Part shown: piece after piece, positions 40,061 to 44,034 of the stretch
Layout: each line of letters opens with the position of its first letter
Position numbering within the stretch: the first letter of the stretch is position 1
Source: Myxococcota bacterium
GTDB lineage: Bacteria > Myxococcota > XYA12-FULL-58-9 > JALHOP01
Direction of reading: 5' to 3'
NCBI GenBank assembly: GCA_041288095.1
Contig: JBGGMJ010000168.1
Location: forward strand, 1-53,437
Length of the DNA stretch: 53,437 bases
Notes under the pieces: generated by a model
The model's input: only the letters and a program-made list of their open reading frames with translations
Told to the model about the DNA's origin: nothing
Database searches by the model: none
Translations under genes and position numbers: made by a program

Positions 40061-40087
40061 CCAAGAATCGACCAGGAACCTTCTTGG
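40061..40087 (-). repeat. REP-like repeat, copy 3 (reverse orientation)
   Basis: Reverse complement CCAAGAA-GGTTCCTGGTCGA-TTCTTGG, with a 7-bp stem. Confidence 0.85.
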
Positions 40088-40108
40088 ATCGTCATGGGAG
40101 GACCCCGC

Positions 40109-41077
40109 ATGTTGCGTTCGCTTGTAGCCTTGACCGCCCTCGCCCTGCCCCTGGCGGCCCACGCGGGAACCATCGTCGTGTTCCCGCCGCAGACGACGAA
40201 CGTTTCGCCCGGCGAAGCGGATGCAGCCGGCGCGTTGCTTGCCGAGGGCTTCAAGGCCGCGAGCGGGGATGCCGTCATCGGACCGGTGCAAGCGGGTGAA
40301 GCGCTGCAAGGCAACAAGTCGCTGCAGCAGGCGGCGCAGTCTCTTGGAGCGGACCGCTACGTCGAGTCGAGCCTCGTCGGCTTGCAAAAGTCGTTGGTGC
40401 TTTCCGCGGACCTCATCGAGGTCAACGGTGGCTCGCGCCGTCACCGCCAGATGACCCTGGCGACCTTGGATGACATGCAGCCGGCGAGCGAGCGCATCGC
40501 CCGCGCCTTGTTGACCGACACGGCCGTCACCTCGAACGAGACGGTCGACACCGTCACCGACAAAGAAGCCGAGGGCTTGAAGCGCAAGAAGGCGAACCGC
40601 ATCGGCGGCTTCCGCGTCGGCATGTTGGCGCCGGTGGCCAAGGGCTACAAGTTCGACCAGGGCTTTCAGATCGTCTACGACCTGCGCCTCGAGCAGCGTA
40701 ATTACTTCATGAACATCGCCACCGGGGCAATGTTCGGCATCAACGGCCGCGGCGGCGACCCGGCAATCTCGGGCTGGCTGCTCGAGCTCGGCGCGGCGTA
40801 CTGGCTCTCCGACGGCGACTTCGCTCCTTATATCGGCGGCGGTCTCTCGCCCCGCATCATGAGCGTCGACGAGGTCCGCTTCGGCCTCGCCCCGTACGCC
40901 GTCTTCGGCGCCACCCTCGGCCGCACCTCGACCGCCCACTTCAGCGCCGAGCTGCGCGCCTACCAAAACGTCATCCGCCAAACCATCAAGGTCGGTCCCC
41001 CTGACTCCAACGGCGACCGCGCCGAGGAAGACGTGTTCCCGACGGAGCTCGGCGTGTTCGTTGGCATCTGGTGGTAG
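40109..41077 (+). CDS. Exported protein: periplasmic alpha/beta domain + outer-membrane beta-barrel
   Basis: GGAGGA RBS, signal peptide AHA-G, strands (FAPYIGGGL), terminal GVFVGIWW. Confidence 0.75.
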   Translation: MLRSLVALTALALPLAAHAGTIVVFPPQTTNVSPGEADAAGALLAEGFKAASGDAVIGPVQAGEALQGNKSLQQAAQSLGADRYVESSLVGLQKSLVLSADLIEVNGGSRRHRQMTLATLDDMQPASERIARALLTDTAVTSNETVDTVTDKEAEGLKRKKANRIGGFRVGMLAPVAKGYKFDQGFQIVYDLRLEQRNYFMNIATGAMFGINGRGGDPAISGWLLELGAAYWLSDGDFAPYIGGGLSPRIMSVDEVRFGLAPYAVFGATLGRTSTAHFSAELRAYQNVIRQTIKVGPPDSNGDRAEEDVFPTELGVFVGIWW

Positions 41078-41120
41078 GAGCCGCGTTCTACCGCCGCACG
41101 ACCTCCTATCGCCGCCCCCG

Positions 41121-41140
41121 GATCGACCAGGAACATTCTC
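41121..41140 (-). repeat. REP-like repeat, copy 4 (reverse, 3' stem arm eroded)
   Basis: Reverse complement GAGAATGTTCCTGGTCGATC, immediately upstream of the Y1 transposase. Confidence 0.75.
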
Positions 41141-41285
41141 CGCGTCGCAAGTTGCGACACGCGAAGGTGGTTGCCACCCCGAGGGGCAGAAACGGTCGCC
41201 TCGATGCGTCCGCTTCGGCATACCCGATGCAATCGCTACAGCGATGTTCCTTCGAGACGTCACTGAAGGCTGCCTCCCCCGCCGA

Positions 41286-42260
41286 ATGTTCGCCGGCCGA
41301 CACCATGCGCGCTTCATCGACCCCAACGTCCCGCTCCATGTCATCTCGCGCGTCTTTCAGGGTCGCCACCTGCTCCGCCCGACCAAAGAGCTCAATTCGA
41401 TCGTGGTCGGCGTGGTTGGACGGGCGCTGGAACGCTACGCAACCGTGCGACTGTACGCTATGGCGTTCCTCTCGAACCACGCGCACTTCATGGTGCAAGG
41501 TCCGCCTCACCAGGTTCCCGCGTTCATCGGCTTCATCAAGCGCGAGATCTCACGGCGCTGGGGTCACCACCCCGAAGTCCGATGGCATGGCACAATGTGG
41601 CACGAGTACATCCCGACTGCGCTACCAACGCCGGCGAGCCAAGTGCGGTGCCTCAAGTACATCCTGAGCCAAGGCGTCAAGGAAGGTCTCGTCGCGCACC
41701 CGCAGGATTGGCCGGGCGTGCACTGCGCTGGGCCGCTGCTTACGGGGGTCCCACTGCGGGGAACGTGGCTGGACGCAACCTCATACTCGCGAGCTGTCGA
41801 TGCTCAATCGCGCCGAGTGAGTCCCCGACCGGTCTCTAGAGCCGACCACGTTCGCAGATACGAGGTTCATTTTGCGCGAATCCCGGCATGGGAGCATCTC
41901 GACGACGAAGCGTGGCGGAACGAGGTGCGGTACCTCGTCGACGAAGTCGTCACCGAGGGAGAAGCAGCAAGGCGTGGGGGCCGACCCGTCGGCGCGCGTC
42001 GCGTCAGGCGCGTTCCGCTTGCTCACCGCACGGAGCTGCCTCGGGTCCCATGGCTGTCACGCGGTCGGCGAATGATCTGCTGGGCTGCTGCTAGCGAACC
42101 CGAAACAATTCGCTTCGTCCAAAGCTACTGGGCGTTTCAGACGGGCTTTCGCAAGGCCGCTCTAGAAGACATCGGCAAAGACCGACACTACCCTCCTGGT
42201 GCATTCGCTCCGGGAATGTGGACGCCACCCGACAGCATGGCACCGAGCGCCGCAGCCTAA
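41286..42260 (+). CDS. HUH Y1 tyrosine transposase, REP-associated (RAYT/TnpA-REP-like)
   Basis: HVISR, HUH motif LSNHAHF, catalytic Tyr in KYILSQGVKEGLV..P.DWPG; long C-terminal extension; no tnpB. Start at ATG 41286 or 41244. Confidence 0.85.
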   Translation: MFAGRHHARFIDPNVPLHVISRVFQGRHLLRPTKELNSIVVGVVGRALERYATVRLYAMAFLSNHAHFMVQGPPHQVPAFIGFIKREISRRWGHHPEVRWHGTMWHEYIPTALPTPASQVRCLKYILSQGVKEGLVAHPQDWPGVHCAGPLLTGVPLRGTWLDATSYSRAVDAQSRRVSPRPVSRADHVRRYEVHFARIPAWEHLDDEAWRNEVRYLVDEVVTEGEAARRGGRPVGARRVRRVPLAHRTELPRVPWLSRGRRMICWAAASEPETIRFVQSYWAFQTGFRKAALEDIGKDRHYPPGAFAPGMWTPPDSMAPSAAA

Positions 42261-42274
42261 TCGAGCGCGAGCGA

Positions 42275-43186
42275 CTAGCGGCGGCAGACGCGCTTGAAGG
42301 AGCACAGAGCGCACTTGGTAACGTCTTCGGTCATCGGAAAGCGCTCGATCGTCGGCTCGCCAGCTGCGAGCTCACGCATTTGTTTCACGGATTCTCGGAT
42401 CTGGTTCTCACCCCACTCGAGGTCAGCGTCGGAGAGCGGGATTTCCACGACCTCGTTCGTCTCGAGGTACGCGAGCAGGGCGCGTGTGATGTCAGCGACG
42501 CCCCAGGCGCGCTTGGCGTAGGCGGCGTAGACTGCGAGTTGTAGCTTTTCGTCGTCGAGCCGTGGCTTACCCGTCTTCCAGTCGACCAGCACCACCCGCT
42601 CGTCGTCGTCCCGATACGCAAAGTCCGGTTTCACGACGATGGTCGAACCGTCAAGCTCGAAGCTAGCAGCCGACTCCAAGGCCAGCCAGCGAAACGCGGG
42701 GGTGCCGCGAATGGTCTCGACCAACGGCAGCGCCTCGAAGGTACGCAGACAGGCTTCCATCCGGTCGCGCTGCGCCCGCCACTCCTCGCGGCTCACCTCT
42801 TCGCGATACTCGTGCTCGAAGAAGGCATACTTGAACACGGGGTTGTCCCTGTACATCCCCTGAATCGACTCGGAATACTGCGCCCGCATCCGGCGCGTGC
42901 CGCGCTCGGCGAGCTGTTCGACCGGCACTGAATCGCCACGCCGTACCGCGGTCAACGCGAGCTCGATCAACTCGTGCACGATCTCGCCGACCCACATGTA
43001 GCGATTGCGCAGGTGCTTGAGCACGTAGAGTTCGCGCGTCTCGCGGTCGGCCGTTTTCACATTGCCGCCACCACGGCTCGCGTAGTGGTGCAGGTAGTAG
43101 CGGCGCAGGCAGGTGCGCAGGCGCTTATCGCGCGTCACCGACCAGGTGAGCCGCCCCGGGACGACGTCCTCGGGCCAAAAGTCCAT
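42275..43186 (-). CDS. PD-(D/E)XK nuclease, Cas4/AddB/RecB-like with 4-Cys cluster
   Basis: N-terminal CLRRYY, GEIVHE, KPDF...VDWKTG, QLAVY, and C-terminal CALCSFKRVC; ATG 43186. Confidence 0.85.
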   Translation of the reverse strand: MDFWPEDVVPGRLTWSVTRDKRLRTCLRRYYLHHYASRGGGNVKTADRETRELYVLKHLRNRYMWVGEIVHELIELALTAVRRGDSVPVEQLAERGTRRMRAQYSESIQGMYRDNPVFKYAFFEHEYREEVSREEWRAQRDRMEACLRTFEALPLVETIRGTPAFRWLALESAASFELDGSTIVVKPDFAYRDDDERVVLVDWKTGKPRLDDEKLQLAVYAAYAKRAWGVADITRALLAYLETNEVVEIPLSDADLEWGENQIRESVKQMRELAAGEPTIERFPMTEDVTKCALCSFKRVCRR

Positions 43187-43197
43187 TTGGTACGACA

Positions 43198-43222
43198 CGA
43201 GAAAGTTCCTGGTCGATTCTCG
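43198..43222 (+). repeat. REP-like repeat, copy 5
   Basis: CGAGAA-AGTTCCTGGTCGA-TTCTCG; core identical to copy 1; 11 nt upstream of the nuclease start. Confidence 0.88.
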
Positions 43223-43391
43223 GGAGCGGGCGGGTATAGCGGGACCGACCAACGTTCTCAAGCTCCTGAGCGCACATCGCCCTGGGTCAGCGCGCCCTCA
43301 CCGGGGAAGCCCAGCGAAAAGGCCGGCAATGGCGCGCCCGAGGGCACCCTGGGCTGGCACGCGCGTCGCAATTCTCCATGCGGAGGTTACG

Positions 43392-43967
43392 ATGCGTGGG
43401 CTTGTTGGTGCTGTTGTAGTCGTGGTGCTGGGGTATGGCGCGGGCGCTAAAGCGGACGCGAAGTCGTGGTTCGCTTACGGCGTGAACACCTCGCTCGGCA
43501 TGCGTCAGAACAGCGGCGACGCCGATGGCAACACACGCTCGGTGGCCAGCACCTTCGGCATCCAGCTCAAGTTCCTCCGCTTTCTCGGCGTCGAGCTCGG
43601 CTACTCCCCCTTCGGCTCGGGCGCCGATGCTCCGGTGCGCTTCGACAACCCGTGGAACGCGAGCGCCCTGCTCTACATCGTCCCGACCTCCCCGGTCGGC
43701 GCCTACTTGAAGGGCGGCGTCGGTAACAGCTCGTTCGCGCGCATCTTCGACGTCGACGGCCAGGAGGCCACTTACCACGGTGGAGCGGGCCTCGAAGTTT
43801 ACGTGACCGATCACCTGGTCCTGGGTGGCGAGTTCCTCTTCCTCACCCCCGGCGCGCGCACCATCATCGACGGGCTCAGCGGCACCAACGACAGTCCCCG
43901 CGCCCCGGACTACTACGTCGCGCCATCGAACTTCCGGGCCTCTTTCCGCGTCAGCTACTTCTTCTAA
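43392..43967 (+). CDS. Outer-membrane beta-barrel protein (porin-family, small barrel)
   Basis: GGAGG RBS, signal peptide, LGVELGY, AYLKGGVG, YHGGAGLEV, terminal RVSYFF. Confidence 0.8.
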   Translation: MRGLVGAVVVVVLGYGAGAKADAKSWFAYGVNTSLGMRQNSGDADGNTRSVASTFGIQLKFLRFLGVELGYSPFGSGADAPVRFDNPWNASALLYIVPTSPVGAYLKGGVGNSSFARIFDVDGQEATYHGGAGLEVYVTDHLVLGGEFLFLTPGARTIIDGLSGTNDSPRAPDYYVAPSNFRASFRVSYFF

Positions 43968-44034
43968 GCCCGAGAAGGTTCCTGGTCGATTCTTGGGCGG
44001 AGCTGAATGGTCGATTCTTGGGGGGCGGAGCTGA
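43968..44034 (+). repeat. REP-like repeat, copy 6, plus tandem duplication of its 3' half
   Basis: GCCCGAGAA-GGTTCCTGGTCGA-TTCTTGGGC; TGGTCGATTCTT(G)nCGGAGCTGA occurs twice (43983-44006, 44008-44034). Confidence 0.85.

Follow-up and report, generated by a model that had tools for sequence, protein, structure and literature searches.

A TIRtron-like element between host genes

The closest described relatives of the locus studied here are the TIRtrons, in which a tyrosine transposase (TIRYT) resembling the tyrosine transposases associated with repetitive extragenic palindromes (REPs), the RAYTs, lies between terminal inverted repeats (TIRs) that have no relation to GTAG REPs (Di Nocera, De Gregorio and Rocco 2013, PMC3733652; here and below, published systems are described from the available portions of the sources). 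Their repeats belong to a dispersed family of moderate abundance in which dimers and clusters occur, and the motif GGGGWSAS is found in some TIRs only (PMC3733652). Our subject is a Y1 (HUH) transposase gene on a 53,437-nt contig of a Myxococcota bacterium (GCA_041288095.1, JBGGMJ010000168.1), analysed whole and called the window; it is contig C168 of genome G000 (5.85 Mb, 66% GC), and the congeners G001, G002 and G003 were compared with it. Sequencing runs containing window DNA are soil metagenomes, with no RNA run among those listed. The locus is a TIRtron-like element inserted between host genes, its right-hand TIR missing. Judging by a box that it shares with host competence genes, its transposase is probably transcribed within a sigma-54 natural-competence regulon of these uncultured bacteria.

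The locus shares with TIRtrons an HUH motif and catalytic tyrosine, non-GTAG inverted flanks and a dispersed repeat family with clusters. It differs in the repeat core, which is GTTCCTGG and not GGGGWSAS (absent from the listed copies), and in that regulation and empty sites are documented here (PMC3733652). Subclasses 2.1 and 2.3 of TnpA_Y1 (Quentin et al. 2018, PMC6006769) are similar in their NHxH motif, long protein, lack of canonical REPs and diverged copies per genome. The signature of class 2 is however Y---NP, whereas all 113 homologues collected here read Y---(Q/H)(G/S/A) after the catalytic tyrosine (QG 83, QS 17, HG 11, QA 1, HS 1; NP 0/113). The C-terminal helix-turn-helix (HTH) of subclass 2.1 is Bac_DnaA_C or HTH_23/28 (PMC6006769); no HTH family was found in the 113 members (Pfam, E 0.01), and our fold comparison spans residues 9-232. 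With RAYT/REP systems (REPtrons) the locus has in common the fold of E. coli TnpA_REP (4ER8) and short dispersed repeats enriched near the gene. It departs from RAYT/REP groups 2 and 3 in that its listed copies have no 5' GT[AG]G foot and form weak hairpins. RAYTs are described as single-copy and non-mobile (PMC8266576, PMC5581495, PMC3686654, bioRxiv 2021.07.10.451892), whereas here several Y1 copies occur per genome at variable sites, with empty sites, and the NCBIfam RAYT score of 44 bits is below the cut-off of 80. IS200/IS605 elements have a short TnpA, near-identical copies and often tnpB; here the protein has 324 residues, copies are 49-78% identical and the neighbours are not tnpB.

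The open reading frame (ORF) at 41286..42260 had been called a RAYT-like HUH transposase in a first-pass annotation of the window, and the ORF itself, its HUH motif, Pfam (Y1_Tnp, E 0.002) and the fold all agree. RAYT-like is the apt word, as the enzyme resembles TIRYTs rather than REP-associated RAYTs. Its structure model (predicted local distance difference test score 93.8) matched 4ER8 best (Z 14.4, root-mean-square deviation 3.0, 156 residues aligned), and the protein has about 150 extra C-terminal residues. The catalytic motif is YILSQG (YxLSQG), H65, H67 and Y125 are invariant in the 113 homologues, and translation may in fact begin a few codons before 41286. Genomes of the genus contain three to six Y1 matches each. 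G000 has three Y1 genes, the third of a distant YxxxNP type. The nearest titled records come mostly from metagenome-assembled genomes of Myxococcota or Deltaproteobacteria.

The 16-nt repeat core has six matches in the window at up to three mismatches, against 0.38 expected; two of the six (504, 558) had escaped the first-pass annotation. Across G000 the profile gave 27 copies and the core 31, including a tandem of four and doublets, and neither gave any in the reversed control. Nine of ten Y1 loci of the genus have a copy 120-260 bp upstream of the gene. At six of the ten, inverted repeats flank the gene on either side at no more than 300 bp, all without the nuclease gene that adjoins the transposase in the window; three, the window's included, have the upstream repeat only and an abutting convergent gene, and one has diverged repeats. 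In the wider family (65 loci, Myxococcota and Acidobacteriota), flanks in inverted orientation were present at 28 (score at least 12) against 7 in the direct-repeat control, and at 19 against 2 at a score of 14; their cores are related and strand-polar.

The unit of TIR, operator (described below), promoter, Y1 gene and TIR sits at different intergenic sites in congeners and is absent elsewhere. G000 has empty sites for the congener loci L067, L070 and L071, and the outer edges of the repeats coincide with the junctions or lie close to them; at present divergence no duplication of the target could be seen there. Repeats are likewise gained or lost at single gaps and are clustered near present and former Y1 sites. 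Synteny paired 25 of 36 congener repeat sites with G000, where 16 were filled and 9 empty, leaving 11 unpaired. Four copies lie within 8 kb of the window gene and three near the empty site on contig C153, against 0.085 expected per 16 kb. The repeat at 40058-40087 is absent in G002 and G003 and tandem-amplified in G001. This syntenic gain and loss, with the local clustering, supports the conservative reading offered in the first-pass annotation, that a RAYT-like enzyme had seeded nearby gaps.

The mirror order of four repeats reported there was also borne out (Table 1). All four are real, but they are not equivalent: the copy at 41113 lacks the 3' arm that folds the others into a weak hairpin. 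This arm is present in 35 of 68 dispersed copies against 3 of 21 Y1-proximal ones; G000 dispersed copies had been chosen by a profile that includes the arm, and the unbiased rows from G001-G003 have it in 21 of 44. A covarying hairpin in the repeat was considered and found unsupported, the stem being weak (z-scores +0.35 to -1.8) and four tandem copies having an A.C mismatch. The hairpin form resembles one TIR followed by the final few bases of a second, inverted one, as in a deleted end-to-end junction, a possible route from TIR to REP. Two reverse copies and one forward copy about 105 bp apart, in TIRtron polarity and with no gene, may be a miniature derivative (L259:506-715). Some copies lie inside or at the ends of coding sequences and are conserved in congeners (L305:1990-2025, L302:2013-2048, L294:1976-2011 and L297:2004-2039; UvrD, a GH20 enzyme and others).

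A palindrome shared by transposase and competence genes

Alignment of the Y1 slot of G000 and G001 brought out a palindrome just inside the left repeat. The pattern GTC(G/T)CA-N3-TG(C/A)GAC, at up to one mismatch, lies 112-149 bp upstream of nine of the ten genus Y1 genes and never downstream. GG-N10-GC, which we take to be the sigma-54 -24/-12 consensus, follows this operator in nine of the ten promoters, at 75-77 bp in eight and at 66 bp in one. The first-pass annotation had overlooked this predicted competence-type promoter. Operator-promoter spacing of this kind has the look of a sigma-54 enhancer, and the palindrome is likely the binding site of a sigma-54 activator. More distant Y1 subfamilies of the genus carry it at four of six loci examined; three Y1 subfamilies share the operator.

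An ordinary TIRtron could have such a palindrome as a subterminal hairpin or binding site of Y1 itself, with the copies at competence genes spread by the element or coincidental. At most loci of the genus it is placed 5-40 bp inward of the left TIR, which recalls the subterminal hairpins of IS200/IS605, and tandem arrays of the palindrome occur in genome G149. The palindrome is however confined to the upstream end, being found upstream in 7 of 68 cases and downstream in none. Elsewhere it occurs without a TIR, keeps a fixed spacing to sigma-54 motifs and, in several families, precedes dprA and comEC by a distance that is conserved. Such an ordinary TIRtron is quite unlikely on this evidence.

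G000 contains 11 exact operator sites and its reversed sequence none; the operator ranks fifth among 180 permuted palindromes of equal composition in this genome (median 0). Four of the nine exact sites not belonging to Y1 genes precede comM (YifB family), comEC, radC and comEA, and one precedes the gene for an FHA-sigma-54 activator. A score matrix trained on these nine sites, with Y1 sites excluded, found 18 sites of at least 19 in G000 against none in the control, adding recQ, recA, dprA and the third Y1 gene. At a score of at least 15 there were 31 sites; 11 well inside genes were set aside and 20 at or between gene ends were counted. Seven of these 20 precede comEC, comEA, comM, dprA, radC, recA and recQ, three precede all three Y1 genes and one precedes the activator gene. 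A looser sigma-54 motif accompanies 13 of the 20.

The site at dprA was predicted before look-up. Across loci of the order, a site of at least 15 lies upstream of dprA in 8/24 and downstream in 0/24; for Y1 loci the corresponding counts are 7/23 and 0/22. At comEC the site is upstream in 4/20 loci, comprising all four genus genomes, and downstream in 0/15.

From family to family, the operators of Y1 and of competence genes vary together. In both G004 and G017, Y1 and dprA carry the same operator variant within the genome. Another variant, TGTCCGA-N3-TCGGACA, taken from Y1 promoters of two other families, occurs 13, 17 and 13 times in G022, G048 and G025, against 0, 1 and 0 in controls. Among 38 variant sites examined, nine precede comM, comEA, radC or recQ and four precede Y1 genes, and a sigma-54 match lies 60-100 bp away at 17, against 85 of 1805 background windows (4.7%). 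G025 has a two-mismatch site at dprA and G034 a related site. Phylum-wide, the operator combined with the pattern TGGCAC matched 17 of 151 genomes. Y1 loci of family f10 were not counted as promoters; their TGGCAC lies on the far side from the gene, where it probably belongs to the TIR.

In the Sxy/CRP-S competence regulons of Haemophilus, Vibrio and E. coli, a box stands upstream of comEA, comEC, dprA, comM, radC and recA. The present set resembles them in having a common upstream box at uptake and processing genes. It differs in its host phylum, in pairing a palindrome with a sigma-54 motif about 75-90 bp away, in its Y1 members and in an ssb gene without a box.

The same element and box could instead belong to a LexA-independent response to DNA damage or general stress with uptake genes as incidental members, in which Y1 would be induced by abundant chromosomal single-stranded DNA (ssDNA) and not by the entry of foreign DNA. 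A LexA-independent damage response exists in Myxococcus xanthus, and the boxes at recA, recQ and radC would suit one here; a box precedes ssb in 0/5 cases. Yet the uptake and transformation genes comEA, comEC, comM and dprA have strong sites, and no uvr, lexA or dinB/imu was found among the genes scanned next to sites. We regard a damage regulon as unlikely.

Several observations weigh against placing the transposase in a competence regulon. None of 50 Acidobacteriota Y1 loci carries the operator, so the link between the two is not family-wide; no alternative spaced palindrome stood out in the Acidobacteriota Y1 promoters. Outside the genus, comEC has the site in 0/16 loci; dprA has none in G022, G048 and G047, and the absence at ssb counts here as well. 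On the Y1 side, no sigma-54 match was found in G022, G048 and G025. Roughly one site in two stands before a gene whose function is unknown or unrelated. In the large genome G149 (family f17) the variant palindrome forms a tandem array with a period of about 72 bp (nine copies in L467; also L475 and L478), which makes the palindrome a form of repeat DNA in some lineages. The genomes are moreover related to one another rather than independent, and there is overlap between the data sets. Finally, the ten genus Y1 copies are 49-78% identical with no near-identical pair, and movement of Y1 is therefore slow or old.

One site marks a candidate autoregulated competence activator, an FHA-domain sigma-54 activator gene with a strong operator and a sigma-54-like motif upstream (G000:C142:16513-18121; L313:414-1862, minus). 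The operator also precedes an IS110 transposase gene and a YhgA-like (Rpn) gene (L438:1535-2698, G048; L330:1498-2642, G019), and the regulon may thus include further mobile genes. Strong operators also stand ahead of small genes that have no Pfam family and are candidate competence genes (L311:2099-2584, L312:1389-1910, L315:1374-1895, L414, L418, L431 and L435).

Competence as a possible route of movement

Within such a regulon the transposase would likely be switched on at DNA uptake, since its promoter region carries the same box as DNA-uptake genes. An enhancer-binding protein would activate Y1 together with comEA, comEC, dprA, comM and recA, and the enzyme, made alongside the uptake machinery, would meet imported ssDNA and recombination intermediates. 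It would nick ssDNA at the repeat and join the strands anew through HUH strand transfer, copying repeats into nearby gaps and, more rarely, moving the whole unit or replacing a resident copy from transforming DNA. Such strand-transfer chemistry is established for TnpA_REP and IS608. TnpA_REP cleaves ssDNA and carries out strand transfer on it (PMC8266576). The three outer repeats of the window would then be seeds in the nearest gaps and, read as such, their mirror order needs no cassette mechanism. More tentatively, and short of an even chance, the RAYT/TIRYT-like Y1 elements of Myxococcota may be competence parasites, with a sigma-54 competence enhancer of the host inside the left end, made when ssDNA is imported and using that ssDNA to move, replace copies and seed repeats.

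The history of the gene bears on this proposal. Syntenic Y1 copies are 53-78% identical, against 86-95% for neighbouring genes, and Y1 is under purifying selection, with non-synonymous divergence far below synonymous. The slot copies of G000 and G001 share 60% amino-acid identity with saturated synonymous sites and are as distant as paralogues. One clade for the two was not rejected by the approximately unbiased test (p 0.067), which fits replacement or fast evolution alike. For the slot as a whole, shared ancestry is favoured by 186 informative sites against 131 and 118, and G000 and G001 likely inherited the Y1 slot from one ancestor. No Y1 match was found on 72,556 plasmids or in viral contigs, an absence that is compatible with a transformation route without proving it.

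Purifying selection, the lack of plasmid and viral matches and the operator shared by three Y1 subfamilies would also suit a Y1 domesticated by the host for its transformation pathway, perhaps to process incoming ssDNA, with the repeats as a by-product. A host enzyme fits poorly, however, with Y1 positions that differ among congeners and leave empty sites, with the low identity of syntenic copies relative to their neighbours, and with the presence of Y1 in only 27 of 61 relatives. Domestication is very unlikely in our view.

The TIRtron is a known kind of element, and its predicted place in a competence-type regulon is what is new here. Among the matches listed in the open literature (subscription journals lay outside the coverage), neither a Y1 or TIRtron gene in a competence regulon nor the regulon itself was found; searches by motif letters returned primer matches only, and the available part of a review from 2025 that deals with competence and mobile elements holds no such transposase regulon (PMC12378983). 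How RAYT-type enzymes and their repeats spread and are switched on is described as open (PMC8266576; bioRxiv 2021.07.10.451892). The shared promoter offers a testable answer, namely that the enzyme requires ssDNA and competence supplies it. If true, the element would exploit competence for its mobility instead of disrupting it, and this would explain the horizontal spread of 'non-jumping' RAYT-type genes without plasmids or phages. The box would also expose an undescribed sigma-54 competence regulon in Myxococcota and provide a handle on competence control in myxobacteria.

Neighbouring genes and the cassette model

Features of the window are collected in Table 1.

Table 1. Coordinates of the transposase element, the repeats and adjoining genes in the window
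Feature	Position	Strand	Remarks
Left TIR of the Y1 element	41113..41140	-	Core AGAAnGTTCCTGGTCG; without hairpin arm (stem test)
Palindromic operator	41141..41161 (core 41144-41158)	.	GTCGCA-N3-TGCGAC; matrix score 28.7, fourth best in genome
Predicted sigma-54 promoter (-24/-12, GG-N10-GC) of the Y1 gene	41216..41230	+	75 bp from operator
Y1/HUH transposase	41286..42260	+	~325 aa (324 aa); NHAH at 64-67, Y125
Dispersed hairpin-type repeat	~40058..40087	-	Directly 3' of the stop of the Lnb-like gene
Dispersed hairpin-type repeat	43198..43224	+	22-nt clean indel (43203-43224) relative to G002
Dispersed hairpin-type repeat with partial stutter	43968..44022 (copy 43968-43997)	+	55-nt gap relative to G002
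Solo Cas4/AddB/ACE1-like 4-Cys PD-(D/E)XK nuclease	42275..43186	-	Host bystander, outside the element
BarrelA, exported host protein, likely LpoB/CsgG-like domain and barrel	40109..41077	+	Bystander
BarrelB, small host outer-membrane beta-barrel	43392..43967	+	Bystander; Pfam OMP_b-brl
Two more dispersed copies of the repeat (matches at 504 and 558)	493..579	+	40 kb from the Y1 locus

The first-pass annotation had proposed a two-enzyme REPtron, in which Y1 and the Cas4-like nuclease excise or shuffle surface-protein genes as cassettes between direct repeats. In its favour, G001 and a metagenome contig (L166) show the same arrangement and repeat orientation. The G001 copy, however, probably reflects shared ancestry. 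G002 keeps the order Lnb, barrelA, another gene, nuclease, barrelB and ADH with no Y1 gene and no repeat in any of the four gaps; its nuclease is 95% identical to the window's, and an Ig-hydrolase gene fills the slot. G003 keeps the left half in order, again without Y1 or repeats, up to the end of its contig inside the nuclease gene. No gain, loss or reordering of the bracketed genes was seen across relatives.

Co-occurrence, which the annotation had put forward as a check, gave a nuclease at 1 of 80 Y1 loci and a Y1 hidden Markov model match at 0 of 80 nuclease loci (64 of the Y1 loci had 1.5 kb of downstream coverage and 50 of the nuclease loci 1 kb). The single nuclease-bearing locus, L091, has the same slot arrangement. 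On the nuclease side, L166 nevertheless carries a cut 3' end of a G001-type Y1 gene, recognised by eye. The nuclease is present in 19 of 61 relatives, and among 15 nuclease regions Y1 or repeats occur only in that of G001; the operator is absent from all 15 nuclease loci and from the barrels. In genomes where the barrels were found, each has a single close copy; at 81-95% identity they match their neighbours in conservation. Of 37 genes lying next to other copies of the repeat, 20 have a Pfam family, mostly housekeeping, and none is a barrel. The cassette model is refuted, because gene order is kept without Y1 or repeats and the linkage to the nuclease is so rare; we give it next to no credence.

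Mirror polarity as a rule was also rejected, as secondary copies at other Y1 loci point either way. At L070, for example, the copy at +988, past a convergent gene, is reverse, whereas of the three at L071 two are forward and one is reverse. The chance that three outer copies match the mirror orientation is 1 in 8. In contigs of four low-depth DNA runs no joint was found at any repeat, the depth being too low to be informative.

The nuclease is a solo host enzyme of ACE1/Cas4-like type without an Argonaute, a bystander and not part of the element. Its four cysteines are invariant in 12/12 homologues, and it matches Pfam PDDEXK_1 and Cas_Cas4. It resembles the Argonaute-associated Cas4 family ACE1, which supplies its best solved-structure matches (9IAC, 9IAB) and its best full-length PADLOC match (PMC12094033). 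Unlike APACE1 and CRISPR Cas4 (PMC12094033), it has no Argonaute or cas genes among 78 neighbours at 40 loci, which are mixed, unconserved housekeeping genes, and no Piwi domain was found in five genomes (G000-G003 and G011). The convergence of Y1 and nuclease with stop codons 14 bp apart, noted earlier, holds in the window, but in G001 the two ORFs overlap and the spacing is not kept. Both flanking genes had been annotated as outer-membrane barrels; barrelB stands (Pfam OMP_b-brl, E 7e-7), whereas barrelA has no Pfam match and its barrel and LpoB/CsgG-like N-domain are suggested by Atlas look-alikes only.

Rfam gave no match, and no sigma-70 promoters or terminators were found. A sigma-54-like motif at 43355-43370, upstream of barrelB, is kept in G001 and G002 and has no operator. 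The slot between barrelA and the nuclease (41078-42274; L023:6470-7700; L025:570-1120) differs among congeners, holding Y1 in G000 and G001, the Ig-fold hydrolase in G002 and a small low-GC ORF in G003. At the G002 site matching 493..579 there is one repeat copy. Around Y1 in G001 (L024), GC at third codon positions is 74-80% in most genes; three others there have 83-85%, and the values in G000 and G002 are 81-88%.

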